In this document: positions 9,739 to 63,810 of the stretch, piece by piece
Numbering within the stretch: the first letter of the stretch is position 1
Layout of the letters: every line of letters begins with the position of its first letter
Source: a virus
Length of the DNA stretch: 64,000 nt
IMG/VR virus record: IMGVR_UViG_3300037465_000037
Location: 12,840 to 76,839 of that record
Direction: 5' to 3' (one strand)
Made by a program: the position numbers and the translations under genes
The notes under the pieces: model-generated
Seen by the model: only the letters and a program-made list of their open reading frames with translations
Database searches by the model: none
Told to the model about the DNA's origin: nothing

Positions 9739-9758
9739 TTTTCTCCTACCAGGGGAAA
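9739..9758 (+). repeat. Dispersed motif, variant copy
   Basis: TTTTCT CCTAC C AGGGG AAA; intergenic; a partial copy TCTCCCTACCAG sits at 9721. Confidence 0.7.
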
Positions 9759-9828
9759 GCCTGGGTTGATGCGAAAGCTTAGTTGTGGTTGTCGAGCTAG
9801 CATGAGCTAATATGAGAGAGTAAGAGTA

Positions 9829-10794
9829 ATGTCGAGCAAGAAGAAGGAAGATGCTGCATCTGGTACGGCCAACCTTCATTGCTGCGCTATTGACATTTGC
9901 ATCTACCATGCTGGATGCATGGATGGGTTAGTCGCAGCATGGTTGATTCGTGTTTTCAATCCAGATGCGCAATTCATTCCGGCGCAGTACGGAGATAAAC
10001 TCCTAGATTGTGTCGATGGGAAGAATGTGATTGTGGTTGACTTCTCATATCCGCGCGCAGTCTGTGAGGAGTTAAAGAGACGCGCCAAGCAAGTGTTGAT
10101 CTTAGATCATCACAAGACTGCTGAGGAAGACCTGCTTGGGTTGGATTATGCGATTTTCAATATCGAAATGAGCGGAGCGCAGCTGGTTGCGCATTGGTTG
10201 AATGGATTTAGTTTGGATGAAGAGAAAGCTAGCAAGTTGAACTATGCTTGCAAGTGGTTGATTGATTACACTGCTGACCGAGACTTGTGGGCTTGGAAGT
10301 TGCCGTATACTAAGTCCATCAACGCTTGCTTGAGGAGTTACGAGTTTAGTTTCCAGGGCTTGAATGCAGCATTGGATGACTTCGCTACCAATGGCATGCA
10401 TATGTTCACTGAGCAGGGTTTAGCTATTATGAGGCAAAATCAGAGATATGTTGATGATCATGTTGTATATGCTAAACGGAATAAGTTCCGCTTGCTGCCA
10501 GATATCATCGAGACGAGAAGAGATACTGTGTATGTAGCTTATGGTGTGAATGCGACGGTATTGCAAAGTGATATCTGCGATGCGATTTTGAAAGTCACAG
10601 ATGCGGATATTGCTTTTACATGGTCAACGAAGTGGAATGGAATGAGCGATGAGTGGTTGTTTAGCTTGAGGAGTCGCAAGGGCAGTGATGTTGATGTGAG
10701 TGTGATTGCCAGAAAGTTCGGCGGTGGTGGGCATAAGCATGCGGCGGGGTTCAAGAATATCGGCATGCCTGTGAGCTTCGTGGGGGTATATTAA
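9829..10794 (+). CDS. DHH/DHHA1-family phosphoesterase (NrnA-like)
   Basis: YHAGCMDG, VVDFS, ILDHHKT, DRDLW, SLRS and GGGGHKHAAGF motifs. Confidence 0.9.
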   Translation: MSSKKKEDAASGTANLHCCAIDICIYHAGCMDGLVAAWLIRVFNPDAQFIPAQYGDKLLDCVDGKNVIVVDFSYPRAVCEELKRRAKQVLILDHHKTAEEDLLGLDYAIFNIEMSGAQLVAHWLNGFSLDEEKASKLNYACKWLIDYTADRDLWAWKLPYTKSINACLRSYEFSFQGLNAALDDFATNGMHMFTEQGLAIMRQNQRYVDDHVVYAKRNKFRLLPDIIETRRDTVYVAYGVNATVLQSDICDAILKVTDADIAFTWSTKWNGMSDEWLFSLRSRKGSDVDVSVIARKFGGGGHKHAAGFKNIGMPVSFVGVY

Positions 10795-10797
10795 GTC

Positions 10798-11349
10798 ATG
10801 ACTCACTTTAACATCGTGGATTATAAAGTTGACTGGAAGAACACATCCATCTACGTCGATGGTGGCGTCATTGGGCGCAACCCGTCTAAACTCGGCGGGA
10901 CATGGGCTTATGTTGTTGTTGACAACCAAACGGACAGCATTATCCAATCCGATAGCGGGGTTGTCTTACCAGAGCATTTCAGCATCGTGCCGCGTATTGA
11001 GATTACGAATAACATTTCTGAGTATTACGCAATGATGAAAGGATTGCTAGCCGTGCCTACTGGTTATAACGGGACTATCTATAGCGATTCAGGTGTGACG
11101 ATTGGGCGGTTCTTCAACGGGTGGAAAAACACGAACGTACCGAATAGTCTGGTAGCGACAGGGCTGAGCCTAGCGAAGACGTTAGGCGAGAATGTGAAGG
11201 CTGTGCTATTAGACGGCCATCCGACCAAAGCGCAACTTGCCGCCGGTGTTGGTAAGCGCGGGCATCCGGTCAGCAAGTGGAATGTGTATGTCGATGCAAA
11301 GTGCAGCGAGGAAGCCAAGAAGTTCTTGAGTGGGCATAAGAAAGCATAA
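10798..11349 (+). CDS. rnhA: Ribonuclease HI-like protein
   Basis: YVDGG, TNNISEY, IYSDS and WNVYVD supply the D-E-D-D catalytic set in RNase H order. Confidence 0.8.
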   Translation: MTHFNIVDYKVDWKNTSIYVDGGVIGRNPSKLGGTWAYVVVDNQTDSIIQSDSGVVLPEHFSIVPRIEITNNISEYYAMMKGLLAVPTGYNGTIYSDSGVTIGRFFNGWKNTNVPNSLVATGLSLAKTLGENVKAVLLDGHPTKAQLAAGVGKRGHPVSKWNVYVDAKCSEEAKKFLSGHKKA

Positions 11350-11362
11350 GAAGTATTGAGGC

Positions 11363-11680
11363 ATGCTGTCAATGAATATGGTTGGTAAGCATGAATGGAA
11401 TGATGTAATACAAACGTGCGTTATCTGTGGTGTAAGCAAGCGGGATTACTTACTGTATAAGGTTGACGGAATTTGCAGACCTGTCGCTGGATGTATTAAA
11501 TGTACTAAGGTGGACGAACTAGTAAGTAACGAGAGTTTAGCTGTTTTCGTCCCCCTCTCTCCTCCCCAGTCAATTTTCCCTTACCGGGAGAAGGCCGAGG
11601 TTGATTGTTCGAAGTGCTTTCATTGTAATGGCGACGGGTGCACGAAGTGTGATCTAACTGGCATGGCGTTACATGACTGA
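11363..11680 (+). CDS. Cys-rich hypothetical protein
   Basis: Several CxxC pairs; overlaps the next start. Confidence 0.5.
   Translation: MLSMNMVGKHEWNDVIQTCVICGVSKRDYLLYKVDGICRPVAGCIKCTKVDELVSNESLAVFVPLSPPQSIFPYREKAEVDCSKCFHCNGDGCTKCDLTGMALHD
11574..11593 (+). repeat. Dispersed motif, variant copy
   Basis: TTTTCC CTTAC C GGGAG AAG, inside a CDS. Confidence 0.6.
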
Positions 11681-12062
11681 ATATAAGATTAACACTGGTT
11701 ATGCTAACTTAGTGAATGATGCGACATTTCGCGCACTATGCGACAGAGTTATCGAGCTAACAGGGATGCAAGTAACGATTGAGCAAATTGCAGCGAGACT
11801 GGTGCGTCCATTGGGGGCTCAAGATTATAAGTGCTATTGGAATCGTTTGGATGAAAGGTTGCGCACTAAATATGATAATGTAAATGGGAAACAGATTGGT
11901 TGGATTGTTCGTACGGCTTGCAACGATAAACGTAAGAATTCAATTGTATATATTGGGCATACTGTTTACAAATACCGGGCTCCTCATTACACTGTTTGCA
12001 CTCCTTCGAGAGTGACGTGCACTTTATGCATTGATTGGTTGAATAAGAATAAAACGGAGTAG
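11673..12062 (+). CDS. Hypothetical protein
   Basis: 129-aa ORF overlapping the upstream stop. Confidence 0.5.
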   Translation: MTEYKINTGYANLVNDATFRALCDRVIELTGMQVTIEQIAARLVRPLGAQDYKCYWNRLDERLRTKYDNVNGKQIGWIVRTACNDKRKNSIVYIGHTVYKYRAPHYTVCTPSRVTCTLCIDWLNKNKTE

Positions 12063-12090
12063 AGCCATGCTTGCTTAATCATCACACTGA

Positions 12091-12366
12091 TTGAATATAC
12101 ATATGCATAGTTTTCCACCAATATCAAAGATATACGCACCTTGGTCGCAGGCCCAGGTGCATCAACTCAATATCTTCCAATCTAAAGACCACCATCATCC
12201 GTTTACCTGCCCTCATGAGCATTGGTTATTGTTAGCTCATCCTGATGGATGGCGATGCCCACCAGAAGGAACATTGAATGACGCAGGCAAGCATCACCCG
12301 GCGCACGATGCGCGTCTTGTGCAGACTTGGGCGTGGAGTTTCATGTTTACGCACGAGTCATACTAG
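12091..12366 (+). CDS. Hypothetical phage protein
   Basis: APWSQAQVHQLNIFQ...HPFTC...GWRCP...QTWAW pattern typical of small phage proteins. Confidence 0.55.
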   Translation: MNIHMHSFPPISKIYAPWSQAQVHQLNIFQSKDHHHPFTCPHEHWLLLAHPDGWRCPPEGTLNDAGKHHPAHDARLVQTWAWSFMFTHESY

Positions 12367-12551
12367 GCTGACTTGCTCTCAATATCTTGCCTCTACTAGA
12401 CTTACGTTGATCTTGTTTTTCTGCTTGACTTCTTCGGTCTTCCACCGTAGACTCTGCGCGTTTTCTATGAGCGTCAGCCTGGGGACGAAGTAACTGCTGC
12501 TGCGCACAGCATCTACTTCAATAACGGTTGCGCTACCAATGAGGGAGGCGC

Positions 12552-13457
12552 ATGCGTACGAATTGCCCGAAGCCACAGAAGATCCACAATTGCTATTTGC
12601 GAGAGGTTCTATCTTATGAGTCTCTCGACTATGATTACGAGGCTAAATTACTACGCCTCGTAGCGCAAGGCGATCAAGCAGCCCGAGACATACTCATTAA
12701 GGCAAATTTGAAGTTCGTCGTGTTTATTGCTAAGGCTTACGCTAAGATTGATACAGCGCAATACTACGATTTGGTTAGCGAAGGCAACATTGGTTTGATG
12801 TTCGCTGTTGACAATTTCGATCCTGCCAAGGGGTATTTTCGTATCTATTTGAAGCGCGTGATTATCAGTAAGATGCTGCGGTTCATCTCAAGTTCAAAAG
12901 AGGTACGCATACCTGTGTATATCCCTGAGTGGATCTTGCCGGCATGGATTCGAGAAAAGACGAGGATGGAAACGCAGTTTGGAAGGATGGTGACTGATGA
13001 GGAAGTATCTGATTCGCTGAAGCTTAGCGAGAACGTTCGGAATGGGATCAAATTCTTGAGGGGACAGCATGTGCCAATGGACCCGATGCTAAAGATTAGC
13101 AGGCCCGATCAGGATCCGGTCGAGGAGTTGGCAATAAATGAGCTGCTGGAAATAGCGTATGCTGAATTGAGGAAGATGGATGAAAAGACTAAGACGATTA
13201 TGAGGAAAAGATACGGGTTCGTTGGTATGAAGCCAAAGACGAAACGCGAGATTGGTGAGGAGATGAACATTAGCAAACAACGAGTGCATCAACTTGAGCA
13301 AGAAGCATTGCGAAGGTTGTCGAAAGTCTTGTTTGGCATGAGCAGGAATGGCGCGAATGGTAAGCATAAGAAGAATGTGAATGGCAATGGCAATAATGAC
13401 AATCATCATAACGCTATCACTAGGAAGATTGTACGAACTTTAATGGTTGGAGAATGA
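12552..13457 (+). CDS. RNA polymerase sigma-70 family factor
   Basis: Region 1.2 YLREV, region 2 LIKANLKFVVFIAKAY...DLVSEGNIGLMFAVDNFDP, region 3 EVRIP, region 4 TKREIGEEMNISKQRVHQLEQEALRRL; GGGAGG RBS. Confidence 0.92.
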   Translation: MRTNCPKPQKIHNCYLREVLSYESLDYDYEAKLLRLVAQGDQAARDILIKANLKFVVFIAKAYAKIDTAQYYDLVSEGNIGLMFAVDNFDPAKGYFRIYLKRVIISKMLRFISSSKEVRIPVYIPEWILPAWIREKTRMETQFGRMVTDEEVSDSLKLSENVRNGIKFLRGQHVPMDPMLKISRPDQDPVEELAINELLEIAYAELRKMDEKTKTIMRKRYGFVGMKPKTKREIGEEMNISKQRVHQLEQEALRRLSKVLFGMSRNGANGKHKKNVNGNGNNDNHHNAITRKIVRTLMVGE

Positions 13458-13819
13458 ATTTGCAATGTGTGAAGTCGCGCAAGCGCGGATGTCAGGCCGG
13501 TAAGTTAGATGTCAAGCTTGCGAAGATTGCGGAACAGCAGATGCATGCTCAGCGACTTGAGGTTTGCTTGGTCAACGCACCTGATCAAAAGTTTAATGGT
13601 CATAAGATTCGTGTAGTCAGTGAACGTAATCCTGAGTGGTACAGAATTCTTGTTAGGCGTCGTCCGCGCACTCATTCGATTAGGCAGTATGTATTAAAAG
13701 CATTGCGTCGTGTGCAGAGTGGGTATATTGGACCTCATCCGTGGTGCATGGATTTAGAGATAGTTGAAGTATTGCGCGAATACGAGGAAGAGCTTTTTGA
13801 TTTCTCAGGTAGATTATAG
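13454..13819 (+). CDS. Hypothetical protein
   Basis: ATGA-type overlap with the sigma gene stop. Confidence 0.5.
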   Translation: MNLQCVKSRKRGCQAGKLDVKLAKIAEQQMHAQRLEVCLVNAPDQKFNGHKIRVVSERNPEWYRILVRRRPRTHSIRQYVLKALRRVQSGYIGPHPWCMDLEIVEVLREYEEELFDFSGRL

Positions 13820-14966: not shown

Positions 14967-15038
14967 CTGCGATTGCTGTAAGCATATCACTGAAGAGATT
15001 CCAGGTACTCATCCAGTTGAAGCGCGAATGTTCAATCC

Positions 15039-15425
15039 ATGAGCGAACCAACTTTCTCGCTCTTCGCCCAGCATAGTCTTTCCTTACTGGGGATAGCCGT
15101 AGGTTCGGCGCTCGCTACGGAGGCTCTCACCGAGCTAATTGTTGAATCCAAATTCTTCTTTCCATTGAGATACATCACATCATCTATCCCGATCATCTCA
15201 TACCTCCTCTCCTGTGGCTACTGCGTTTCAGTCTGGGTTGCAGCATTCTTCACCTACTTCGTTCTCATGAAATGCACATCATTCACATTCGTCTGCTCGT
15301 ATGTGTCATCCACCCAAGTACATCCACTTTTGTGCTTTCTTGTCGTAACTCTTGGCATTCACCGTACTTCCAACGCTCTTCATGCTCTACTTCAGCGGTT
15401 GTTCTGGCCTTCGCTCGATTCCTAG
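15039..15425 (+). CDS. DUF1360-like membrane protein
   Basis: Hydrophobic segments with the LLSCGYCVSVWVAA motif. Confidence 0.65.
   Translation: MSEPTFSLFAQHSLSLLGIAVGSALATEALTELIVESKFFFPLRYITSSIPIISYLLSCGYCVSVWVAAFFTYFVLMKCTSFTFVCSYVSSTQVHPLLCFLVVTLGIHRTSNALHALLQRLFWPSLDS
15077..15096 (+). repeat. Dispersed motif, variant copy
   Basis: TCTTTC CTTAC T GGGGA TAG, inside a CDS. Confidence 0.5.
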
Positions 15426-15557
15426 ATTTTTCTCCTGAACCACTTGACGAACTTGAGTGTCCTGGTGTAAGATCTTGGCAGAACGGTCAACTTAGCTGTA
15501 TCACTGGCCTGAAGATGATACAGCTTGAAACTCTAGAAACCTTGAAAGGGGCAGAAG

Positions 15558-16247
15558 ATGGGCGTGGCTGAGATCGAGGCACGGGCGAAGGAGAAGCTGG
15601 CTTCCATCGCTGAGGAGCGCGCTGCGCTTGAGGCGAAGCTGGAGGCATGCGACCACAAGGAGGGGCTCATCCGTGAGCTTCTCGGGCTCCAGGGTGAGGA
15701 GGGGCCGAAGCCTGCGAAGCGTGGTCGCAAGGCCAAGGAGTCCACCGGCGGTGCGAAGCGTGGTCGCAAGGGCAAGGGTGGAGGGCTGTCGGTTCGCCAG
15801 CGCATCCTCCATGTGCTCAACAAGGCGACTGCGCCGATGGCTGCTGGCGCGATTTACGAAGCTCTTGAGGCTGAGGGTGGTGGCACGTCCAAGGCGACGG
15901 TGTACACCACGCTCAACGGCATCAAGAAGGACTCGCTGGTGGACTCGCATGAGCACGAGGGGCGTGGCGATGCCTATGCGCTGAATGACGCTGGGCGTGC
16001 TGCGCTCCAGGCTGAGCCTGCCGAGGCTGAGGATGAGGCTGGCTCGACTGAGGCTGGCGATGCTCCCGCTGAGGGCACTGCTGCGTCTGCTGATGCGAGT
16101 GCGAGTGCGGCCGGCGAGGCTGGCAACGGCAACGACGAGCCCAAGGGGAAGCGTGGCCGCAAGGCGAAGGCGAAGGACGGAGAGGCGGGTTCGCCTGAGC
16201 CCGAGCCGGTTGGGGCAGTCGCCGGGCCGGACAACTCGCCCTTCTAG
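15558..16247 (+). CDS. Nucleoid-like DNA-binding protein (coiled coil + KRGRK repeats + winged helix + acidic tail)
   Basis: N-terminal heptads; KRGRK three times; LSVRQRILHVL...AGAIYEAL...SKATVYTTLNGIKKDSLV is winged-helix-like; strongly GC3-rich codons. Confidence 0.65.
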   Translation: MGVAEIEARAKEKLASIAEERAALEAKLEACDHKEGLIRELLGLQGEEGPKPAKRGRKAKESTGGAKRGRKGKGGGLSVRQRILHVLNKATAPMAAGAIYEALEAEGGGTSKATVYTTLNGIKKDSLVDSHEHEGRGDAYALNDAGRAALQAEPAEAEDEAGSTEAGDAPAEGTAASADASASAAGEAGNGNDEPKGKRGRKAKAKDGEAGSPEPEPVGAVAGPDNSPF

Positions 16248-19188: not shown

Positions 19189-19542
19189 ATGCTGTACGAC
19201 GATTGCGTGCTGCCGTCGGTGTTCAATAGGAAGCTGATTACGGCGCGACGTGAGCACAGATGCTCGGAATGCGAGCATCCGATCTTCAAAGGCGAGCAAT
19301 ACTGGAATATCCGTGGACTCTGGGAAGGCACTTGGGATACGTTCTATATTTGCACTTGCTGTGAGAACGCTCGATGTGCTGTTGCTGGCGAGATAGATGT
19401 TTCTTGTGTGCCGTACGGCTTCCTAGCAGAGTATATTGATTATTATGGTTTAGAAGACAAGCCTGCGACGGTTGAAGTTTGTCGGTTTTCGGCTCTTCTC
19501 TCCGATCAATCCAACATTTCTTCTACAGGGGGAGGGCTGTAG
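19189..19542 (+). CDS. Cys-rich hypothetical phage protein
   Basis: ARREHRCSECEHPIFKGEQY...CTCC pattern. Confidence 0.6.
   Translation: MLYDDCVLPSVFNRKLITARREHRCSECEHPIFKGEQYWNIRGLWEGTWDTFYICTCCENARCAVAGEIDVSCVPYGFLAEYIDYYGLEDKPATVEVCRFSALLSDQSNISSTGGGL
19516..19535 (+). repeat. Dispersed motif, variant copy
   Basis: ATTTCT TCTAC A GGGGG AGG at the end of a CDS, upstream of the portal region. Confidence 0.7.
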
Positions 19543-19781
19543 GTTGAATGCTCGTTCTGCTGATCATATTGGTCAGATTGTTATGACTGTTGCTCTTCAG
19601 TGTTTAGTTTTTTCGAAGATTAAAGACCCAATGGAGAAGTCTGAGTGTATTGAGAATCTTGTACTGCGTGCGCGTAGTGAGATTCTTCGAGTCATTAGTG
19701 AGAACTACGATGGCAATACTACTAATTCTAATTCAAATGGTAATATTGTTTCGCAGTTTCGCGTAGTTGAGGAGTATTCGA

Positions 19782-30681: not shown

Positions 30682-33600
30682 GTGGCCTTTGAGGATCTGA
30701 TATTCAGACTCAAGTCCGAAACTGAGGACTTGAAGAAGCAGATTGTAACCGCTCTGCGCGAGGCGGCTAGGTCTGCGAAGATTAAGATACCTGTTCAGCT
30801 TGACGCTAAGGCTGCTGCTGAATCGTTGCAAGCCGGCCTAGCGAAGCGCACATTCAAAGTCAAGCTGCAATTTACTGAGACGCAGAGGGAAGCGCGGAAG
30901 GCTGCGACTCAAGCTGCGAAGGCTGCAGCGCAAGCACCAAAGTTTCAGCCGAGCGGACCGCAATTAGGACTTGGTGCGCTACGGACTGAACAAATTAAGC
31001 AAGCTGAAGCGGCGGCAAAGAATACCGCTGAGGCCGCTAAGAAGTCTGCGTCTGATGCGCAGAAAGCTGCTGCTGCCGAAATCAAAGAACTTGAGAAGAT
31101 CGCCGCCGCTCGCCAAAAGATCATCGACAAGAATGTCAATGCTCAGCGTAAGGCATTCAACGAGCAAGCAAGGCAATCTAAGCAGCAAGCGCAGATTGAC
31201 AAGGTGCTCTTCAAAGAGCGCGTAGCTGAGATTGTTCGTCAACCTCGTGCTCTTGGTGCTCTTATTCCACGGCAAGAGCCTCGCGGGCTGATCTCTCAAC
31301 GGCTCGCACCTGAAATCCAGCAACTTGAGATCGCACGCAAGGGATTAGAGCGTGCTTTCGCGCGTCGGCTTCCTGAGCAGCGTCGTCTTGTTGCTGAAGA
31401 ACGTGCATTCCCGACTGAAGCCCCGGCCCGTCGGTTTGCTGCGCTCGAAACTCCTCGAATTGACCCTCGTCTTATCCGTGCTCAACAAGACAAGATCGAG
31501 GCTGAATTTAAGAATGGTTTGCGGCGCTTTACTGCTGCCAGTGAGATTCAAGCTGGCGGGATCTTCAAGCGGTCCTTCGATGAACTAAAGAAGACCAACA
31601 TCTTCCAAATTCTATCTGCTCGTGCTGCCACCTTCGGCGAACAAATCAAAGGGCTTGGTCTAGGAATTCAAGCTAGCTTCTTCAATCGCTTCGGGCGTGC
31701 TGGCGTCACAGCATTCAATGCTATTACGACTCCAGCGAGTCTATTTTCTTCCCTACTGGGGGGCATTGCGGGTAAGGCCGCTCAAGCTGGCGCTAGCATG
31801 TTGCGTAACTTTACTAATGTTCGTGGACTAATTGGCTCTCTCTCCGGTGTAGTTGGTAAGCTAGGATTTAGCCTTACTCGTATTGTTGGTATTCTTAGCG
31901 GTGGATTCCTACTTGGTGGCGCAATTGCTGTTCCGATTGCTGCATTCAAGTTCCTCTCTTCAACTTTAGAGAAGACTGCTGAATTTGGCGATCAAGTTGC
32001 GCAATCCATGACGCTTTTGGTTGACCAATTCCAGAATTTGCAAGGTCAGGCTCGTCTTGATGTTATTAACCGCAACATGGCTGACCTTAGTGCATCTATC
32101 AAGGACGTTGCAGTTAGTGCGGGCTTGTCGTTCAAGGAAGTTGGTCAAGGTTTGCGTGATATTATTTCGGCTGGTGTTGGTTTGGATGACCTAAAAGAAC
32201 GTCAAGAAGCTCTCAGAGTTTCGGCTGACGTGGCGGTCGGTGGTGTGGTTGAGCTTCAGGATGCGTTTCGTGGGTTGTTGGGGCTTGTGCGTCCGTTCAA
32301 GGTTTCTTTTCAAGAAGCCGGCGACGTGCTATTCGCAATTGAGAAACTTGGTATTGCTCCTGTGCGTGAGCTTGCTGGACAGATTGGCCGCATCACTCCA
32401 ATTGCTGCATCTGGTGGGGTGAGTTTGCATGAGTTCGCTGCGGCTATTTCAACTGCGACTTCTCAGTCAGTGCCGCTTGAGTCTACGCTAATCGGTTTGC
32501 GGCAAATCTTCGCTGAGTTCTCCAAAGGAGGGACTGACGAAGCTAACAAAGCAATCAAGGAATTGCAAAAGAGTTTCCCAGCATTCAATCTTGAGCTTAG
32601 TGCAACTTTCCTACGTCAAAAGGGTTTGGTTGGTGTGCTCAAAGAGCTAGGTAAGGTTTCGCAAGATCGTATTGGTAGTATCTTCCGCGAGGTTCGTGCG
32701 CTTGCGCCTTTGCTGGCGATCTTGCGCAATATGACGAAGTTTGAAAGTGACTTGGCTAAGATTAAGGATTCTAGTGGTCAGGCTTCATTGGCTGCTTCTA
32801 TTCGGAATGAGTCTCTAAGGAAGTCGTTGGATAGATTGAGTTCTGCAATTGATGTTGCACAGATTGCGATTGGAGATCAACTTGCTAGATTGATCAACCT
32901 GAAGGGCATCATTGATGGTGTGCAGGCTGGGATCAAGAGGTTTGCGGATTCTCTTTCTGCGATCCCGGCTGATACCTTCAGGAAGTTCATTGACCAATTC
33001 AATAGCTTGAAAGGATTGAATGTAATCTTTGAGTTCTTGGCGCGAAGTTATGTGAAGTTCATTACGGTGTTCGTTGCTGGTTCATTGAAGCTTGCGCCAG
33101 TGATTGCGCAAGCGTTGACACCATTGTTTACGTTGATTGTGGTTGGATTCAAGAGTATGGTCAACGTTGTTGGTGGTATCTTGGCGCAGTTTACTGATTT
33201 AGTGGCTGAGGTTTTTATTGGTAAGCTAGGTGATATTGTCAAGGACGGATTGCTCAGCACTATCAAGATTATCGCTGCCGGTGGTGGCCCTGCTGCAGCA
33301 ACCCTTGCTGATGTTCTTATCAAAGCGTTTAGTTCTTCTGAAGAGGATATCAAGAAAGAGCGCCAGGCTCTCATTCAGCGCATTAAATCTACTACTGAGA
33401 AGTTTGAGTTGTTCTCGGCTGAAGACCTTGATCCAGCGAAGATATCCAAGAATCTTCAGGGGTTCCCGCAAGTTGTTGCTGATGTTGCATCTAAAGCTTC
33501 TAAGGCATTGACTGAATTTTTCAAGGATTCTCCTGATCTGGTTACTCAGTTGTTTGGATTGCAGCGCGGGGAGAGGCTTGAAGATATCTTTACCAGGCTA

Positions 33601-43065: not shown

Positions 43066-43644
43066 ATGAGAACGCTTTTCGGGCGGCCCCTCTCTCCTCA
43101 ACCCAAACTCAATCTTCTCCTACAGGGGGCAGCGTGGTTGATCACCGCACTTGTTTTGCTCTCTACTGGGTGCGTCACTGGCCCGACCAAGGAAGCAGCG
43201 CAAGTCAAATTGACTGGCGATCAAGAGGTATTGAAACTCAAGTATATTGCTGAGGATTTCTGTGACAAGGATTTCACCGCACGTCGGCAGCGTGTTGTTG
43301 AAGTGTGGGAGGAGGGTTGGAAGAAGGCGCAGGGTGCTGATGGCAAGGTATCTGCTGAGTTTGCCGAGGCGTATATCACCAAGAAGAACTTAGCTCTAAC
43401 TGCATTGCGTTTGCTTGAAGAGGAAGCAATGCAGGATATTGATGGTCTATATACAAACTATGTGCGTGCTTCTGGTGGATTGTACGAAGAGTGGGAACGC
43501 CAGGGTAAGCTCACTGCTGCGCATATTGAGGCTTTACGAGAATTTGGTGTGACTGGATTGGAGATGTATCGAAGTCACCAGAAGAAGAAAGCCGAAGAGA
43601 AGGCAGCCAAGAAGGCACTCGAAGCAATGGAGAGCGAGGAGTAA
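43066..43644 (+). CDS. Putative lipoprotein (spanin-like candidate)
   Basis: Hydrophobic AAWLITALVLL followed by lipobox LSTG-C, then a helical body. Confidence 0.6.
   Translation: MRTLFGRPLSPQPKLNLLLQGAAWLITALVLLSTGCVTGPTKEAAQVKLTGDQEVLKLKYIAEDFCDKDFTARRQRVVEVWEEGWKKAQGADGKVSAEFAEAYITKKNLALTALRLLEEEAMQDIDGLYTNYVRASGGLYEEWERQGKLTAAHIEALREFGVTGLEMYRSHQKKKAEEKAAKKALEAMESEE
43113..43132 (+). repeat. Dispersed motif, exact-core copy
   Basis: TCTTCT CCTAC A GGGGG CAG. Confidence 0.8.
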
Positions 43645-50918: not shown

Positions 50919-51768
50919 AATCATACTGGCTGATTGTCTTGACGGGCTGTCTAGCCTTCCTGATTCTTTTGCTCAGTTAATCTATATCGACCCACCTTTC
51001 AATACCGGAAAGAAACAGGTACGAAATAGAATCAAAGTTGAAGCTGATGCAGAAGGTATTCGTCAAGGATTTGGTGATAAGAGATACAATGTTGAGCATA
51101 TTTCCAGTAGTAGTTACGATGATTGCTTCGATGATTACATTGGTTTTCTGATGCCTCGCATTGAGGCAGGAATGAGATGCCTGAGTAAAGACGGAAGTCT
51201 CTTCGTGCATCTTGATTCTAACGAGGTTCATTATGTTAAGGTTGCGCTTGATGGCATGCTTGGACGCGATTTATTTATCAACGAGATTATTTGGGCGTTT
51301 GATTATGGTGGTCGTCCAAGGACACGCTGGCCTGCGAAGCATAATACAATCTTGTGGTATGCGCGTGATCCAGAGAATTACGTTTTCAATTATGATGCAA
51401 TCGACCGCATACCATACATGGCACCAGCGTTAGTGGGAGCAGAGAAAGCTGAACGTGGAAAGACACCAACAGATGTTTGGTGGCATACGATTGTTCCAAC
51501 TAATGGAAAAGAGAAAACTGGTTATGCAACTCAAAAGCCATTGGGGATTCTGAATCGCATTGTTCAGGTTCATAGTAATCCTGGGTCTATTGTTCTTGAT
51601 TTCTTCGCTGTTAGTGGCACGCTTGGAGAGGCGGCAGTTAGGAATGGCAGGGGTTTCTTACTCATAGATAAGAACCCTGAAGCTGCCCAGGTCATGGCGA
51701 AGCGACTTAGGTTTTGCTGTCCAGAGTATGTTGGATTCAGACCGCAAGACGACTCGGATAATGCATGA
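50905..51768 (+). CDS. DNA N6-adenine/N4-cytosine methyltransferase (beta class)
   Basis: IYIDPPF (motif IV) precedes TQKP and VLDFFAVSGT (motif I with a G-to-V change). Confidence 0.88.
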   Translation: MMMRKIILADCLDGLSSLPDSFAQLIYIDPPFNTGKKQVRNRIKVEADAEGIRQGFGDKRYNVEHISSSSYDDCFDDYIGFLMPRIEAGMRCLSKDGSLFVHLDSNEVHYVKVALDGMLGRDLFINEIIWAFDYGGRPRTRWPAKHNTILWYARDPENYVFNYDAIDRIPYMAPALVGAEKAERGKTPTDVWWHTIVPTNGKEKTGYATQKPLGILNRIVQVHSNPGSIVLDFFAVSGTLGEAAVRNGRGFLLIDKNPEAAQVMAKRLRFCCPEYVGFRPQDDSDNA

Positions 51769-54700
51769 GCACTTGTGATATAAGCAAGGAAAAGTGGAGG
51801 CAATTCCGCGAGCAAGTCTTGCGTGCCTTGGACATTGAATTGGTTTATCGAGACATTCGTCGGTCTGGGCGTAACAATGCAAATGGCTGGGTGTCGGCTT
51901 ATTGCCCGTTCCATGAGGATAACAATTCGTCGTTTGCTTTCTGTGTAGAGGACGGCCCATCTAAGGGTAATTGGAATTGCTTTGCTGGCTGTGGACATGG
52001 TTCAGTATTTGACTTCTGGTCGAAGACTCATGGCGGTATTCAGTATATTGACTGCTTGGAAGCGTTGGCGAAGATGTTCCAGGTTGAGTTGATTTGGACT
52101 AATGCAAATAAAGAGGAAGTAGCGAGGATCGAGCAAAAGCCATTCGAGCAGCAAGTTGAAGAGCAAGCGCAAACACAAGCGGAACCAAGCCAAGCCACAG
52201 AAACAAATCAACCGATCATACAGCCGGCTCCCCCTGTAGGGGAAAAGTTGGCTAGGGATGAGAATGATCTATCAGCCAAGAAGAACCGGCAAGTAGATAT
52301 CCAAGTTGTCATTGGCTGGCACAAGCGGCTATTGTCATTGCCTGACCGTCTTGAGTACCTGCATTCTAAGCGTGGGCTCTCCATCGAAACTATCAAGGAA
52401 TTCAAGATTGGCTGGTCGAGTCGCTTGCATCGCTATACCATTCCGATTCTTGATGAGAATGGAATCTGCCGCAACATTCGCATGTACGATCCGCACCGGA
52501 CTAGCGGGAAGGTCATCAACTTCACTGAAACGCTAGACGGCAAACGCATTTCATACGGTTCCCCTATCAGGCTCTTCAATCTCGACCAGCTTGTCAAGCG
52601 CAAGGACGAGCCAATTATTCTTACCGAGGGTGAAACAGATGCGCTAGTCACATACCAGCATGGCTTTCTTGCTGTCTCTGGCACTGGTGGTTGCATGGCT
52701 TTCCGGCCTGAATGGCTGCCATTCTTCGAGGGCCGGGATGTTATAATATGCTACGATTGCGATGAGAAGGGCAAGAAGGCTGTCGTTGAAGTTGTTGGTC
52801 CAGTCCTTTCCTCGCTCAAGCTCAACTCGCTCAAGATCCTCACGCTTCCTCTCGCCGGCACGAGCGACGACAAAGACCTAACCGACTTCTTCGTCAAGCG
52901 TCAGAAGACTGCCGATGATCTAAAGAAGCTCATTCAGGACCAAGGCAAAACAGATTCATCCGAGTTCAATTCTTTCCCTACCGGGGGAGGCGTTGGCATT
53001 CCCGGCGATGTGATTATGCTAAGCTCTTTTACTGAGGTTGAGAAGAATGAATATATTGGCAAAAAGGTGCGCTGCATAATTGTAGCATCTGGTGAAACAT
53101 CTGAGTCCTTTCATGCTGTCAAGAAATTCAAGATTGCACATTGCAAGAATTATGAATCTGGGCGGTGTCCTTGTATATTGAAGAATAATGGTGTGTATGA
53201 TATTCCACCTAATGCGCGTGAGCGTATTGGTAGTTGTATGGCAACTGATATCACAGTGATGAATATGCTGCGAGATTTTTGTTGTTCTCGTGGGGCCAGG
53301 CCGACGATTGAGATACTTGAGAAAGAAACAATCACTGAGTTCTTCTGCCATCAAGATGCGACTCGCTTTACAATTAGCGACGATACGCTTGCGGACAATG
53401 AAGGGAATGAACTACTAGAGAAGCGAGTTTATTTAACCTCACCCGAGCGACCCAAGCTTGGTAGGTATGCGGCTATCGGTTGGGTAACGTCCAATCCACG
53501 GACGCAGCAGATTACTTTACTGATTGAGCATCTTCAAGCTCTTGAAGACGATTACCAATCGTTTGATCTTGCTAAGCATAAGCATGAACTAGAATACTTG
53601 CAGGGGCTAGAGTACGACGACATCGTTAATTTCCTTTCGACTAACGTTGTGAAGATTTACAAGCGACCTCAGTTGATCCTCGCAGTATTGCTAACATTGC
53701 TCTCTCCTCGCTGGCTACATTTCAACGACGAGCGCATTCGAGGTTGGATTAACTCGCTAGTAGTTGGTGACGTTGGCGCAGGCAAATCTCAAACCTACAC
53801 GCGCATTTCCGATTTCGTTAGTGTTGGCGACGTGTTCTCTGGACTGACTGGTTCGCGTACTGGTTTGGTCTATGGCTTGTCTGAGCATAAGCAGAAGGGT
53901 TGGCAAGTCAGAGCCGGGCGTATTCCATCAAACTCTCGCAAAGCACTCATGATTGACGAAGCTCATATGCTTCAAGCTGAAGATATTCGCACCATGAGTA
54001 AAGGCATGGATGAAGGGTTCGTGCAGATTGACAGGATCTCATCTGGTGGATATGAAACTCAGACACGCATTCAGATCATTGCTAATCCTGCTGGCGACGG
54101 AACGATGGATAAGTATTTGTATGGTTGCGAGGCGATCAAGGAGTTACTGCCACCAGCGGTTGTGAGAAGATTGGACTTCGCTGTGATTGTCAATGCAATG
54201 GACGTGGCTGATCTTGATATCCTCAATTTGCAGCACGATGTTGGTAAGTTATCTAACTTGAAGATCGTTGGTAGCACATTGCGATCTTTGATCTACTGGG
54301 CGTGGAACTTAGATATGCGTGATATTCATTATGAGAGCGAAGCAGTGAGTGCAGTATTGACAAATGCTAAGAATTTGTCAATGATGTTTGGCGATGCGCA
54401 TGACATCCCACTTGTCAATCCTTCTGACGTGCGCAAGAAGCTTGCGCGAATTGCTGCAGCCGTTGCAGTATTAGATGTGAGTACCGAGTTTGGCAATCCT
54501 GCTCTGGTCATCAAAGCGCGTCATGTTGAGTATGCAACCAATTTCTTGAAGCAAATCTATACCGCTGAGAACTTCAAGCTTGATGAGTATGCTACCGTGC
54601 AAGGTATGAAGGTCAATATTACAGACTATGATGAGCTTGATGAAGTTATCATGAAAGCGGATGAGCTTATGATGGCAATGCTTTTTATGCTCAAGCATCA

Positions 54701-55073
54701 GCCAGTGGTTAGAAGGTCAGACTTGCCAATTGTGCTTGGCGTGAAAGATGGTGATGTTGCTAAATGCATTCAGGTATTGCGTGCGTACAACTTAATATCG
54801 CCATACAAGTTTGGCAACTTCATTCGCACGACTAGATTTAATAGATTCATGCGAAAGTTCAGCTCGTTACACTTGGATTACATGGATAGGGCAACTGGGT
54901 TGTATATGTCCAAGGTAAAGAATAGCAAGGGTGTGAGTATTGATAAGATTTCAAGCAAGAACGGGAAAGGCAAGAACAAGAATAGGCTTACAAACATAGA
55001 TGAAGAGCTTGATATTGACTTCGACGGAGTGGATGAGGCGGTCGATGAGGAGCTAGGGGATGACGGATACTAA
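51765..55073 (+). CDS. DnaG-type primase fused to an MCM-type helicase
   Basis: CHC2 zinc finger (CPFHED...CFAGC); Toprim (LTEGETDAL, YDCD); AAA+ GDVGAGKS, SRTGL, LMIDEAH, IANP and VRRLDF with MCM-like spacing. Confidence 0.82.
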   Translation: MSTCDISKEKWRQFREQVLRALDIELVYRDIRRSGRNNANGWVSAYCPFHEDNNSSFAFCVEDGPSKGNWNCFAGCGHGSVFDFWSKTHGGIQYIDCLEALAKMFQVELIWTNANKEEVARIEQKPFEQQVEEQAQTQAEPSQATETNQPIIQPAPPVGEKLARDENDLSAKKNRQVDIQVVIGWHKRLLSLPDRLEYLHSKRGLSIETIKEFKIGWSSRLHRYTIPILDENGICRNIRMYDPHRTSGKVINFTETLDGKRISYGSPIRLFNLDQLVKRKDEPIILTEGETDALVTYQHGFLAVSGTGGCMAFRPEWLPFFEGRDVIICYDCDEKGKKAVVEVVGPVLSSLKLNSLKILTLPLAGTSDDKDLTDFFVKRQKTADDLKKLIQDQGKTDSSEFNSFPTGGGVGIPGDVIMLSSFTEVEKNEYIGKKVRCIIVASGETSESFHAVKKFKIAHCKNYESGRCPCILKNNGVYDIPPNARERIGSCMATDITVMNMLRDFCCSRGARPTIEILEKETITEFFCHQDATRFTISDDTLADNEGNELLEKRVYLTSPERPKLGRYAAIGWVTSNPRTQQITLLIEHLQALEDDYQSFDLAKHKHELEYLQGLEYDDIVNFLSTNVVKIYKRPQLILAVLLTLLSPRWLHFNDERIRGWINSLVVGDVGAGKSQTYTRISDFVSVGDVFSGLTGSRTGLVYGLSEHKQKGWQVRAGRIPSNSRKALMIDEAHMLQAEDIRTMSKGMDEGFVQIDRISSGGYETQTRIQIIANPAGDGTMDKYLYGCEAIKELLPPAVVRRLDFAVIVNAMDVADLDILNLQHDVGKLSNLKIVGSTLRSLIYWAWNLDMRDIHYESEAVSAVLTNAKNLSMMFGDAHDIPLVNPSDVRKKLARIAAAVAVLDVSTEFGNPALVIKARHVEYATNFLKQIYTAENFKLDEYATVQGMKVNITDYDELDEVIMKADELMMAMLFMLKHQPVVRRSDLPIVLGVKDGDVAKCIQVLRAYNLISPYKFGNFIRTTRFNRFMRKFSSLHLDYMDRATGLYMSKVKNSKGVSIDKISSKNGKGKNKNRLTNIDEELDIDFDGVDEAVDEELGDDGY
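52227..52246 (-). repeat. Dispersed motif, exact-core copy
   Basis: Minus strand TTTTCC CCTAC A GGGGG AGC, in the primase linker. Confidence 0.8.
52971..52990 (+). repeat. Dispersed motif, exact-core copy
   Basis: TCTTTC CCTAC C GGGGG AGG, at the primase/helicase junction. Confidence 0.8.
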
Positions 55074-57929: not shown

Positions 57930-57933
57930 AAAT

Positions 57934-59841: not shown

Positions 59842-60512
59842 AGATCGAGCGCGCAGAGGGGCTACTGCGAAGTGGGGATTTGGTGTGGTTCTATGATCGT
59901 GGGATTGGGTATGTTGATCCGCAGGGCGCTGGCAGTACGCCGTACAATGAAGATTACCAGCAAGAGTATGAGAATAGGGCGGCGAGTGAGATTGGGTATA
60001 AGTTAATTGAGGCTCGACGGAAGTTAGTGGAACGTCATTGGAGTGGAGAAGCCAATAGCACTACACCAGAATTCCAGTTGCTTGATTTTGGTGCTGGTTA
60101 CGGTGCTTTTGTTCAGCATATGCGTTCCTTGGGATTCAATAATGTGTATGGATACGACGTTAATCCATTCTCGTGCTATCGTCTAATTGAGAATGGATGG
60201 TTTGCTGATCCATATAAGAGAAAGTGGCGGCACATTTCATTCTGGGATTCATTGGAGCATTTGCCTGATCCTGAAATGATTCTCAGGCAGGCTTCACATA
60301 TGGTATTCATGTCGTTGCCAATTTTTGAGGCACCTGATAAATGTAGGGTGTCCAAGCACTTTAAGCCAATGGAGCATGTATATTATTATTCAGAGCGTGG
60401 GTTAATTAGGATGATGCGTGAGTTCGGGTTTGATCTTGCTGAGGTTAATGATGAAGAAGTTCAAATCGGACGGGAAGAAGTGCTGAGTTTTGCGTTCAGG
60501 AGGATTCTGTAA
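59838..60512 (+). CDS. Class I SAM-dependent methyltransferase
   Basis: LLDFGAGYG, GYDVNP and FWDSLEHL motifs. Confidence 0.85.
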   Translation: MKIERAEGLLRSGDLVWFYDRGIGYVDPQGAGSTPYNEDYQQEYENRAASEIGYKLIEARRKLVERHWSGEANSTTPEFQLLDFGAGYGAFVQHMRSLGFNNVYGYDVNPFSCYRLIENGWFADPYKRKWRHISFWDSLEHLPDPEMILRQASHMVFMSLPIFEAPDKCRVSKHFKPMEHVYYYSERGLIRMMREFGFDLAEVNDEEVQIGREEVLSFAFRRIL

Positions 60513-61171
60513 TGAGCGATACCCAGAAAAAGCTTGACTATTCAAACTGGCTCACTGCTGAGAGGCTTGCTGCCCAAGAGAAAGCCTCGCTCGACTCGCG
60601 GCTACATGAATGGCCTGCGCTTGTGCTTGTCCGTGATTTGTACGAGTGCGGACGTGCTGGTATGCAGACAGTCTATGAATTTGGATGTGGCACTGGGATT
60701 CTAGCGTCACTATTACCCAGGAATCTCAGGTATATCGGCATCGACAATCATGCTGAGTCTATTAGCATTGCTCGCGCACGTTGCCAACGCAATGATTTCA
60801 GGTTCGACCAATTCGACATTCACGATGGCGTGCCTGATTATATGATGCGACGTGCAAACTGGGTTATCGCTTGGGCGTTTTTCAAGCACTTCTCGCTCAA
60901 CGGATGGGTAAACCTAGTTAGCAATCTCATTCGTACGGGAGATCGGGCCGTATTCAATTGCTGCGTGAGTGAGCATGCGCATGATGACGGGATTGAGTTT
61001 CATCATGTGCATGTGACACGCGAGATGGTTAATGAGGCTGTGAGCAAGGCTGGACATACTGTTGTGCTAGAGCGGACACGAGGCGAGCCATTCAAGACCA
61101 GCCAAGGATATACCTCGGTCCAGCCATTATTCCTGACGAGGAGGAATGCTCGTCAGGATCGCATGGATTGA
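60512..61171 (+). CDS. Class I SAM-dependent methyltransferase
   Basis: VYEFGCGTG, YIGID and AFFKHF motifs. Confidence 0.8.
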   Translation: MSDTQKKLDYSNWLTAERLAAQEKASLDSRLHEWPALVLVRDLYECGRAGMQTVYEFGCGTGILASLLPRNLRYIGIDNHAESISIARARCQRNDFRFDQFDIHDGVPDYMMRRANWVIAWAFFKHFSLNGWVNLVSNLIRTGDRAVFNCCVSEHAHDDGIEFHHVHVTREMVNEAVSKAGHTVVLERTRGEPFKTSQGYTSVQPLFLTRRNARQDRMD

Positions 61172-61283
61172 GATGTATTGAGATTTACGTAGTTGAAAGA
61201 ACAAGCGAGACAAGCTGGAGTTACAACGCGCACAGAGGAACCTGACCAAACCCTCGTGCCGTCAAGGTGAGAGATTTGACTTG

Positions 61284-61451
61284 GTTGTTGCCTGTCTCGC
61301 TAGTTGAGAAATGCTAGACAGCGTAAATTATAGAATGGATTAGCTTTGCTCGTTTAATGCACTGATCATCATACCAGCGGTTCATAGTCGCGCCATCGAC
61401 CTAAAGCGGAGGTTAGAGTTGCTGCCTCTCTCGCTAGGTTGGGAAATGCTA
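61284..61451. repeat. Imperfect 33-34-bp direct repeat pair
   Basis: GTTGTTGCCTGTCTCGCTAG-TTGAGAAATGCTA (61284-61316) and GTTGCTGCCTCTCTCGCTAGGTTGGGAAATGCTA (61418-61451). Confidence 0.8.
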
Positions 61452-61452
61452 A

Positions 61453-61839
61453 CTATATTTCCGTAAGTCGTTTCAGGGCTTGAACGCTCTTCTGAGCGAT
61501 ACCCATTGTGTACCTCTCTCTGAAACTCAGATAAGTTATATACGCCCTCTGATTCTGCCTTAACTGATTTACGTTGACCATCCAATCAATGCTTCTCGTT
61601 TCTCTCTGGAAATGGTCAGCGACGGCTTCTCTTGCTTCATCAATACTAGCAAACGTCCCTCCGAAGTTCAATCCACTAATATGCGAGACTGTATACAACC
61701 ATGGCGTTTGTGGGATTACATGAACGACAATCCCATGCACGTCTGTTTTATATGTATCAACTGTGCAGATGGCTTGTCCAGACTTATTGCGAATTGTAAG
61801 TTCACCCATTGAAGCGATACTTCTTCCCTTCGGCTTCAA
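61453..61839 (-). CDS. Hypothetical protein
   Basis: 128-aa ORF in the leftward block; start uncertain. Confidence 0.5.
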   Translation of the reverse strand: MKPKGRSIASMGELTIRNKSGQAICTVDTYKTDVHGIVVHVIPQTPWLYTVSHISGLNFGGTFASIDEAREAVADHFQRETRSIDWMVNVNQLRQNQRAYITYLSFRERYTMGIAQKSVQALKRLTEI

Positions 61840-62224
61840 CGTTCTTATTGCTGCGAATGTACTTCAATGCGGTGCGCCAGTGGTCGTCGGCGAAAATAAT
61901 ATGCTTCGGGATGCAATCTATGATTTGCTTCTTCGACATCCACTGACCGGCGTGCTGTCTCAAGATCTCGACAACAATATGCGTGGTCGAGTAGTCATTG
62001 ACGAGTGCCATGCCGCCTCCCAAGATACTGCGGAACTTAGCCGCAGTTAGGCGCTTGGCTAATTTTAGCGTGGTGCTGAAGGTATCAGTATCGAAGATCG
62101 TTGTTGCTTTATCGAGAAAGCAACGCCTTGCAAACCTGAACTTATATGGCAGCGATACCCGGATCTCCTTACGGATAGCCGCAATTGTGCAGCTTTCGTC
62201 CGACGATTCGTCCTCGCTCATCAT
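61802..62224 (-). CDS. Hypothetical protein, possible C-terminal winged helix
   Basis: IVVEILRQHAGQWMSKKQII...WRTALKYI...KYR pattern. Confidence 0.45.
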   Translation of the reverse strand: MMSEDESSDESCTIAAIRKEIRVSLPYKFRFARRCFLDKATTIFDTDTFSTTLKLAKRLTAAKFRSILGGGMALVNDYSTTHIVVEILRQHAGQWMSKKQIIDCIPKHIIFADDHWRTALKYIRSNKNVEAEGKKYRFNG

Positions 62225-62615
62225 CCCGAATACCTATAAGAATACTACCACCATCAGTCAAAATGTCGCAGGCTTCGGGGACGGCATGCGAGGCTGGTTT
62301 ATATCTATGCTGGTCTGATTCCACAAAAACGAGCCTGCCACCATTAGCCATCATCATGAAGGTTTGCGTATTGCACTTGCGGCAGCGATACCCATATTTA
62401 GGCGAGTGAGCGGAAAGAGGAGAGCAAGACACATGTTTTGGGCTCTTCTCGCCCAACGAATCAATTTCTTCCCTACTGGGGGAAGGCTTAGGTTGATCGC
62501 TCAACCTATTATTACTACTATGCTGCTGCTCCTCGGCTTTCTTTAATGGTAGCACGGAAGAGCACTTCCTTTCGCCACAGGATTTGAGCGAGCCTGCGAT
62601 CAAGCGGATGGTCAA
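62169..62615 (-). CDS. Hypothetical protein
   Basis: CRKC and HNC motifs; start uncertain. Confidence 0.4.
   Translation of the reverse strand: MTIRLIAGSLKSCGERKCSSVLPLKKAEEQQHSSNNRLSDQPKPSPSREEIDSLGEKSPKHVSCSPLSAHSPKYGYRCRKCNTQTFMMMANGGRLVFVESDQHRYKPASHAVPEACDILTDGGSILIGIRDDERGRIVGRKLHNCGYP
62466..62485 (+). repeat. Dispersed motif, exact-core copy
   Basis: TTCTTC CCTAC T GGGGG AAG; shares 17 nt with the copy at 31746. Confidence 0.8.
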
Positions 62616-63810
62616 TCACCAGCGTTGTGTACAGGCAAGCATTGCGCTGTCCATTACGATAGATGCGACCCTCGGCTTGAATGTTGGCTGCGGGAGTCCA
62701 GTCAAGATCGATGAACAAGAGTTGGTTGGAGGAGTGAAGGTTGATGCCTTCACGTCCGGCACCGATGGTGAGAGCGATACCCCTGTACTGCTTAGCTTGG
62801 AAAGCCATCGTGCGCTTGTGACGCTCGGTGTCGCTAACGTCGCCGGTGATGTACGTCCAGCCTTCGCGCTTGCCAAGAATTTCAACCGGCTCCTTGTAAG
62901 CGCAAAATACCACAAGCTGCTCGCCCTGCGCTTCAAGATCTTCAATAATCTGCTCAGCAGCAGGGAGCTTCGCCATTGCCATCTGTGCTCGCACTCGCGC
63001 AATCTCTGGCATAGGCGGAAGATTCGTGACTTCTTTGTCTGGTGGTTGCAGTGCGAGGTATTGCTCAAGCCTGTCGGATGCATCATCCATCAAGAGCTCG
63101 AGCTTATTGTAATTGAGGATAGAATCTGGGTCAACTTGAATGGTTCGCCAGCGGCGTTCTGGCATGTCAGACAAGACAGTTTCAGTCTCACGTCTAAGCA
63201 TTACAGAATTGAGAGTAGTAAGAGCAGCAGTGGAAGGGAAGCCCCACTTAGCATGCGGCTTGCGATCCACATTGAAGTCAAGCTGCATCATATACTCACG
63301 AGGCCAGGTTTGGTCTTCTAGGCCAAGCGAGTAGAGCACAGCCCAAAGCTCGCCTGGATGATTGACCATCGGCGTGCCAGTCACGCCGTATACAAAAGAG
63401 TCAGGATGCAAACGCTCTACGATTTTCCGAATGCGCTTAGCCTTTTGGGTATCACGGTTGCGCAAGCAATGGCACTCGTCAACGATGAGCGTTGTAGGCG
63501 TTGCTGGGTCGATGACGGCAGGGTTGACTAGTTCGTAGTTTGAAACTACGGCTTCCCCCGGTAGGGGAAAACTAAACTCGGACTTGGACTTAATGATGGT
63601 GGTGTTGAGTGGAGAGTCCCAGAGTTGAAGTTCATGCATCCAGTTGTACTTGATAGACGCAGGACAGATGATGAGTGCAGATGGAGTATTGATGGCGTTG
63701 ATGAGTTGGGCTGATTTACCAACGCCACACGAGTCGGCCAGCAAAGCGCGCTTACGAGCGCACAGCCAGGTGACTCCAGTGCGCTGATAAGGGTAGAGTT
63801 GTAGGCTCAT
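62518..63810 (-). CDS. SNF2-family (SF2) helicase/ATPase
   Basis: LADSCGVGKS, LIVDECH, GVTGTP, GREGINL and QAEGRIYRNGQ motifs. Confidence 0.9.
   Translation of the reverse strand: MSLQLYPYQRTGVTWLCARKRALLADSCGVGKSAQLINAINTPSALIICPASIKYNWMHELQLWDSPLNTTIIKSKSEFSFPLPGEAVVSNYELVNPAVIDPATPTTLIVDECHCLRNRDTQKAKRIRKIVERLHPDSFVYGVTGTPMVNHPGELWAVLYSLGLEDQTWPREYMMQLDFNVDRKPHAKWGFPSTAALTTLNSVMLRRETETVLSDMPERRWRTIQVDPDSILNYNKLELLMDDASDRLEQYLALQPPDKEVTNLPPMPEIARVRAQMAMAKLPAAEQIIEDLEAQGEQLVVFCAYKEPVEILGKREGWTYITGDVSDTERHKRTMAFQAKQYRGIALTIGAGREGINLHSSNQLLFIDLDWTPAANIQAEGRIYRNGQRNACLYTTLVIDHPLDRRLAQILWRKEVLFRATIKESRGAAA
63552..63571 (-). repeat. Dispersed motif, exact-core copy
   Basis: Minus strand TTTTCC CCTAC C GGGGG AAG, inside the SNF2 gene. 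Confidence 0.8.

Follow-up and report, generated by a model that had tools for sequence, protein, structure and literature searches.

A directional, G-rich DNA element in 17 copies on an uncultured freshwater phage contig: candidate promoters for a phage-encoded sigma factor

It is well known that phages can carry sets of conserved promoters of their own that are read by a phage-encoded sigma factor; equally familiar are the promoters of the T7 group, which are unbroken, directional elements of about 23 nt, AT-rich upstream and with TA before a GGG start, present in 10–20 copies per genome at gene boundaries or at the 3′ ends of upstream genes. Among phage sigma factors, phi32_gp36 and 7-11 gp47 read 6–8 conserved promoters that are not of the sigma-70 type; the phiEco32 gp36 element is tAATGTAtA, with starts 6–8 bp downstream and six promoters identified by experiment, and the phage 7-11 gp47 element is GTAAtg-16-aCTA (PMC8948821). 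Dispersed phage sites of another kind are found in L5, which carries more than twenty asymmetric 13-mers (PMC9283540). Here, we describe a dispersed motif centered on CCTACNGGGGG in a 64,000-nucleotide stretch of viral DNA (the window), which comprises bases 12,840–76,839 of a 77,165-bp virus contig (IMG/VR record IMGVR_UViG_3300037465_000037), and we estimate at roughly 45% the probability that its repeats are phage-specific promoters read by the host core polymerase together with a phage sigma factor encoded at 12552–13457. Coordinates are window positions unless marked as contig positions (contig L001).

The motif is strongly over-represented. In the window CCTACNGGGGG occurs six times exactly, against 0.00 expected from dinucleotide shuffles, and 11 times with at most one mismatch, against 0.92 expected. 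The whole contig holds 8 exact copies against 0.13 expected, and 16 one-mismatch copies against 3.5, when the comparison is made with a codon-preserving shuffle in which every protein and its codon usage are kept. Since the excess survives this shuffle it is not a by-product of coding, and the non-random enrichment claimed in an earlier note on the same stretch is thereby upheld. A position weight matrix spanning −10 to +27 and built from 15 training copies delimits a family of 17 clean copies, 15 of them the training copies at 24.7–40.4 bits and the other two at 22.8 and 19.4 bits; the next best site reaches 15.9 bits. Ten copies are within the window and the other seven in the 12.8 kb that precede it, with 13 on the plus strand and four on the minus strand. 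The four near copies listed earlier at 9745, 11580, 15083, and 19522 are true members of the family, as they score 28.9–31.8 bits once their flanks are counted. Three weaker copies proposed at the same time score 15.9 bits (27323), 9.1 bits (36567), and below 8 bits (4333), and are probably chance or decayed sites. With the 17 copies masked, no second over-represented long motif was found beyond codon repeats, in a test that a weak bipartite promoter would escape.

Matches to an 18-mer of the motif in IMG/VR were rejected as unrelated: they fall in 10 contigs with one copy each, seven of them at one homologous locus. Those seven contigs (L005, L006, L008–L012; 69–138 kb, from one metagenome) have in common a near-identical 37-mer, TCyCTCTTCCCCTACCGGGGGAAGTACGGTTCGCG, which is present exactly once per record in the five whole records searched, and which is a conserved single locus and not a dispersed repeat.

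The conserved unit is about 45 bp long, asymmetric and directional, cAATTTTYYCCTACNGGGGGAAGGC-N-TAGGTTGAT, so that its first description as a 20-bp quasi-palindrome has to be abandoned. Its first part is a ccGAG block or else a tract of pyrimidines (CTCTTCTCTCC), followed by cAATTTT and then by YYCCTAC-N-GGGGGAAGGC, and in most copies a (T/G)(A/G)GGTTGAT block follows 8 nt past the G-run; a weak TYCAYCC block occupies matrix columns −21 to −16. Conservation is unbroken over about 21–23 nt. None of the 17 copies departs from T3, A4, C5, or G8, and none has a G at N, where A, C, and T occur (P = 0.0075), which confirms an earlier remark on N.

The six exact cores of the window lie at the coordinates and on the strands first given for them. 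Proceeding from the left, the first four copies carry near cores, all on the plus strand. The copy at 9721–9771 (core CCTACCAGGGG at 9745; 31.4 bits) is placed in the intergenic gap 9391–9828, 85 nt upstream of the ATG (9829) of a DHH-phosphoesterase gene that starts an operon, and is preceded by a partial duplicate, CTCCCTACCAG, at 9721. The copy at 11556–11606 (core CTTACCGGGAG at 11580; 31.8 bits) is 94 nt upstream of the ATG at 11673 and overlaps just one doubtful open reading frame (ORF) of 105 residues (coding score 4.4). The copy at 15059–15109 (core CTTACTGGGGA at 15083; 28.9 bits) sits 476 nt before a winged-helix gene (15558), in a non-coding gap of 591 bp, and the copy at 19498–19548 (core TCTACAGGGGG at 19522; 29.9 bits) marks the terminase–portal junction, at the 3′ end of a small Cys-rich ORF that follows the large terminase and 261 nt before the portal ATG. 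The remaining six copies have exact cores. The copy at 31728–31778 (plus strand, core at 31752; 25.5 bits) lies in sense orientation in the tape-measure gene and is without the GGTTGAT block, and the copy at 43095–43145 (plus strand, core at 43119; 31.9 bits) lies at the boundary of the tail and replication modules, 118 nt past the stop of the preceding gene. Two copies are found in the primase-MCM gene, one antisense to it (52214–52264, minus strand, core at 52230–52240; 37.7 bits) and one sense (52953–53003, plus strand, core at 52977; 36.4 bits). The copy at 62448–62498 (plus strand, core at 62472), which with 40.4 bits has the top score of all, is in a gap between two minus-strand genes and points against both, and the last copy (63539–63589, minus strand, core at 63555–63565; 37.7 bits) is in sense orientation in the 5′ third of a SNF2 helicase gene.

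This placement is not that of a mark spread over the genome. At least seven of the 17 copies lie squarely in the 13.75% of the contig that is non-coding according to a simple coding-potential gene call (P = 0.005), and with three further copies that touch a doubtful ORF or a gene boundary the count rises to 10 of 17 (P = 2e-5). Four copies are positioned 59–94 nt upstream of start codons, three of which have a Shine-Dalgarno sequence, and a copy also marks the left end of the contig, before the first gene. Overall, the early, regulatory, and replication regions are where the copies gather, at the heads of operons and preferentially in large gaps. It had been stated that most copies lie inside genes; within the window only those at 31752, 52230, 52977, and 63555 are clearly intragenic. 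The 23-kb structural module holds a single copy (31752), and together with the non-coding placement this means that the proposed marking of the whole genome fails. The motif is better explained as a set of phage transcription signals than as a genome-wide marking system.

The two copies in the primase-MCM gene (51765–55073) speak to the level at which selection acts. Its protein product was aligned with nine homologues of about 1000 residues and is about 100 residues longer than its homologues through linker insertions, two of which carry the motif. The G-run of copy 52977 and what follows it encode a 6-residue insertion, TGGGVG, in the Toprim–MCM linker, which is absent in the nine homologues, and copy 52230–52240 lies in an extended linker that follows the zinc ribbon. 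Because both copies occupy linker or insertion segments missing in homologues, we consider them to be selected as nucleic acid, in keeping with the earlier suggestion, and the gene shows at two places that regulatory DNA can be written into protein linkers. An in-frame ATG is found 40 nt downstream of the 52977 core, and an MCM-only product from an internal start after this copy is conceivable. DnaG-primase/MCM fusions of about 1000 residues are themselves common in metagenomes, with 100 matches at E below 1e-10, the query excluded.

What could read such an element? A phage-encoded reader had been proposed before, and the idea is plausible; the candidate then named, a supposed XRE regulator at 8515–9390, has no detectable XRE or helix-turn-helix (HTH) domain, while the sigma factor at 12552–13457 had been overlooked. 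This plus-strand gene encodes a full-length sigma-70-family protein with regions 2, 3, and 4 (Sigma70_r2 2e-11, r4 8e-11, r3 weak) and is our candidate motif reader. Its closest structural relatives are SigA and RpoS (1e-24); no close homologue was found, the best match being a cellular protein with 34% identity. In sigma-70, the −10 and −35 elements are contacted by residues of regions 2.3/2.4 and 4.2. When aligned to SigA (7l7b_F), the phage protein has RV..S..L in place of WW..Q..T in region 2.3/2.4 and K-Q-R-V-H in place of R-E-R-I-R in the recognition helix of region 4.2, and since the contact residues for both elements are replaced, it should need a different, non-consensus promoter. The presence of this sigma factor makes an ordinary reading, that of phage-specific promoters, the likeliest one.

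A second protein may be involved as well. An ORF of 121 residues on the minus strand (6807–7172) resembles sigma region 4 alone; its identity with the corresponding region of the phage sigma factor is 33%, and the two have the Q..VH residues of the recognition helix in common. It is possibly a second reader or a competitor. The ORF lies in a 2.6-kb stretch (5871–8515) in which the coding signal is otherwise poor on both strands.

About 100 nt upstream of the sigma gene, at 12425–12453 on the plus strand, is a host-type promoter-like site, TTGACT-17-TAGACT, assigned by consensus match only. Similar TTGAC-N17-TAnnnT sites were seen by eye in several other gaps, and it is therefore probable that a part of the genome is served by the host holoenzyme; generic scans for promoters and for terminators stayed at chance level. 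Another such site, TTGACT-16-TAATAT at contig 3531–3565, has its second hexamer preceded by TG and stops 7 nt short of the ATG of an excisionase-like HTH_17 gene, which points to a leaderless mRNA. Between this HTH_17 gene and the motif copy at contig 3295 are 270 nt of GC-rich, structured sequence that contain no ORF and may give rise to a small RNA.

We infer the link between sigma factor and motif, the start site, and the timing of expression along the following lines. The promoter would consist of one long conserved element that extends from about −8 to +12 relative to CCTACNGGGGG and is flanked by weaker positions; a host-type sigma-70 holoenzyme would not recognize it. Placed behind a host-type promoter, the sigma gene would be expressed early, and its product would then redirect the host core RNA polymerase to the motif where early/middle, replication, and some late units begin. 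Transcription would proceed along the direction of the motif and start within or a few bases past the G-run, by analogy with single-element phage sigma promoters. If T3 and A4 are taken as −12/−11, the G-run would fall in the discriminator, the start in the purine-rich AAGG, and the TYCAYCC block near −35. Intragenic copies might be internal promoters, for instance for an MCM-only product, or antisense promoters. Reading the motif as a promoter for the host sigma-70 factor itself, with GGTTGAT as −35 and TAGGTT or TCAAT as −10, was rejected: no consistent partner hexamer could be seen by eye, and the critical A at −11 is absent or not constant.

Several observations weigh against promoters read by the phage sigma factor. 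There is no clear bipartite −35/−10 geometry, the stretch that would need to melt is G-rich, which is unusual for a bacterial polymerase, and the succession of an AT-rich block, CYCC, TACN, and GGG is closer to the layout of T7-type promoters than to that of sigma promoters. The GGTTGAT block is left unexplained by the promoter model. The bias along transcription noted earlier is present but weak contig-wide, with 12 of 17 copies co-directional with local transcription, which is only suggestive (P = 0.07), and the five copies that point against local genes include the top-scoring one at 62472. No RNA runs that hold sequence of the contig were found, the source being a DNA metagenome, and none of the relatives shares the motif or the sigma factor.

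An operator-like function of the sites is unlikely but deserves to be weighed. Here, a monomeric or otherwise asymmetric phage regulator would block initiation or elongation at oriented, stoperator-like sites, or loop the DNA between facing copies; candidates are the 121-residue region-4-like protein, the HTH_3 or HTH_17 proteins of the left arm, and the winged-helix protein at 15558–16247, several HTH proteins being encoded. Many dispersed asymmetric copies in both orientations with a bias along transcription recall L5, four facing minus/plus pairs are spaced 0.9–1.4 kb apart, and high-scoring antisense and intragenic copies are easily explained at the level of DNA. The core also contains a real TTCCCC/GGGGAA dyad, but it is lopsided, with 17 changes at its four C positions against five at the partner G positions (P = 0.008), and this unequal conservation of the arms disfavors a symmetric dimer operator. 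In addition, the unit of about 45 bp far exceeds an operator of 13–17 bp, large operon-head gaps are favored over short intercistronic spaces, and no integrase, CI-like repressor, or immunity module was found among the proteins scanned. The mycobacteriophage stoperator analogy drawn earlier holds for the dispersal and asymmetry of the sites, and is weakened by the length of the unit and by the lack of a recognized repressor or integrase among the proteins scanned.

A role of the motif in sense RNA appears distinctly doubtful. The hairpin UUCCCC-UACNG-GGGGAA, formed in leaders and intercistronic regions, would in this case act in nut-like antitermination, in processing, for example by the NYN-cold-shock nuclease that the phage encodes, or in mRNA stability. 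In 14 of 17 copies the antisense hairpin is the less stable of the two, because C-to-T substitutions, which preserve pairing as G-U, make up 16 of the 17 changes in the left arm and the G arm is nearly fixed; moreover, boxA-like CGCTCTT or GGCTCTT tracts precede several copies. Against this stand only two candidates for compensatory change (T-A at pair −2:11), a number within chance (approximately 1.2 expected), and the conservation of the TAC loop and the flanks as sequence and not as structure. Five copies, including the two top-scoring ones, are antisense to or outside any expected mRNA, and the high-scoring antisense copies argue for an action at the DNA level over one in sense RNA. No Rfam family matches the motif sites, and the copies are too distant from start codons for a translational operator. 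A second conserved hairpin downstream that uses GGTTGAT was rejected as no better than shuffles (z below −1.8 in just two of 17 copies, mean z about 0), and steric constraints make a pseudoknot or alternative helix of the type CCTAC/GTAGG implausible, its conservation being no more than moderate.

It is very unlikely that the copies are promoters for an RNA polymerase of the phage, single-subunit (T7-type) or other, encoded in the unsequenced part of the genome, although this reading offers the best match in layout: the AT-rich block, CYCC, TA at −4/−3, a non-G at −1, and the GGG start all have their counterparts in T7-group promoters, as does the unbroken conservation over approximately 23 nt, and an N that is never G would fit a fixed +1 G. 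The contig is incomplete, and a 7623-bp contig from the sequencing run extends 4.7 kb past its right end (window position 64000 and beyond). However, no polymerase domain was detected in any scanned ORF of at least 300 residues in the 77 kb, the following 4.7 kb has small genes only, and a phage with its own sigma factor is expected to use the host core polymerase. Two orphan proteins examined as a hidden RNA polymerase were rejected, as the 752-residue orphan resembles a tailspike (atlas look-alikes) and the 460-residue orphan is Gam/Gp157-like.

Other DNA roles, as strand-specific nick sites like those of T5 or phiKMV, transcription-activated origins, or partition or packaging sites, are barely probable: the strand bias of 13 to 4, the two divergent copies that flank the primase catalytic core in a replication gene, and the phiKMV nick consensus, which also contains CCTAC, are set against copies that are dispersed over 77 kb and not clustered like iterons, with no ParA/ParB or nickase gene recognized among the proteins scanned. 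The parS, matS, KOPS, and primase-hairpin readings put forward earlier lack both supporting genes and geometry, and an intrinsic terminator is rejected because the T-run precedes the hairpin and the relation to stop codons is inconsistent.

The sole near-identical holder of the contig is a freshwater metagenome run, and by its gene content the phage is long-tailed. Its genes, almost all of which lie on the plus strand, include structural genes for a large terminase, a Mu-type portal fused to a Nudix domain, a head protease, and a tape measure of 1709 residues, as well as genes for a RecD-like helicase, the primase-MCM, a DNA methylase, and glycosyltransferases. The left end of the contig coincides with the end of another run contig, and the 4.7-kb extension on the right carries 11 further small minus-strand genes, including those for DUF932 and DUF2786/DUF7168 proteins. 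No close relative of the phage was present in any collection searched: a megablast search of 12 kb against phage records gave no match, nor did a search of IMG/VR with the large terminase, and the best protein relatives (42–44% identical; loci L013 and L014), with 44% as the best for the large terminase, are on short contigs from which the motif is absent. The phage belongs to a lineage without cultured relatives.

Just to the left of the window, at contig 12306–12701, is a full-length tmRNA (Rfam 111.7 bits) that ends in CCA and was missed by ARAGORN; it has no exact match in the genome collection that was searched for host inference. Two tRNA genes, for tRNA-Leu(TAA) at 4844–4929 and tRNA-Met at 10340–10413, are reported alongside this contig-numbered tmRNA. 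The early region also encodes a fusion of an NYN nuclease with a cold-shock domain (contig 4900–5988), possibly an RNA-processing enzyme; its neighbors are a gene of the staphylococcal-nuclease-like type and one for a stand-alone response-regulator receiver protein (contig 2466–3017).

If the motif copies are indeed promoters of the phage sigma factor, what would be new is the unusual promoter sequence and some odd copies. The system would constitute a compact orthogonal pair of one sigma factor and its cognate promoter of approximately 21 nt, G-rich and dyad-bearing, of use to synthetic biology as a part and to studies of the divergence of sigma specificity. We see a slim chance that the motif is a new kind of oriented DNA signal. 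This might be a G-rich hairpin promoter served by the divergent sigma factor and its region-4 paralogue, whose facing and diverging copies in primase-MCM and near SNF2 would be antisense or interference switches or transcription-primed R-loop origins, or else a stoperator-analogous polar roadblock in a lytic phage.

In comparison with known systems, the motif resembles lambda nut (boxA + boxB), where a GCTCTT-like tract in operon leaders is likewise followed by a short hairpin whose loop has 5 nt. Lambdoid phages, however, have two nut sites in contrast to the 17 copies here, the boxA-like tract is found in only about half of the copies and at a distance of 12–21 nt, antisense copies are as conserved as sense copies, and no N-like protein was identified. 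T7-group promoters are similar to the motif in length, direction, layout, copy number, and placement, whereas this long-tailed virus has its own sigma factor and no T7-type polymerase gene in its 77 kb or in the next 4.7 kb. Cluster A stoperators of the L5 gp71 type resemble the motif in being dispersed asymmetric sites, present in many copies that tend to be oriented along transcription (PMC9283540). They are, however, 13-mers, lie in short intergenic spaces, and belong to temperate phages that have a defined immunity repressor. Here a unit of about 45 bp prefers the large operon-head gaps, only 12 of 17 copies run in the direction of transcription, and neither a repressor nor an integrase module was found among the proteins scanned. 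Compared with the promoters of phage sigma factors (phiEco32 gp36, 7-11 gp47, SPO1 gp28 and gp33/34), the present element is much longer, with about 21 nt of uninterrupted conservation and flanks in addition, G-rich where melting would occur and dyad-bearing, its 17 copies include antisense and intragenic ones, and the full-length RpoS/SigA-like sigma factor is unrelated to those of phiEco32, 7-11, and SPO1. In both cases a phage sigma-70-family factor is encoded, and in both a few to approximately 20 conserved elements that are not of the sigma-70 type tend to lie upstream of non-early genes, with host-type promoters elsewhere (PMC8948821).

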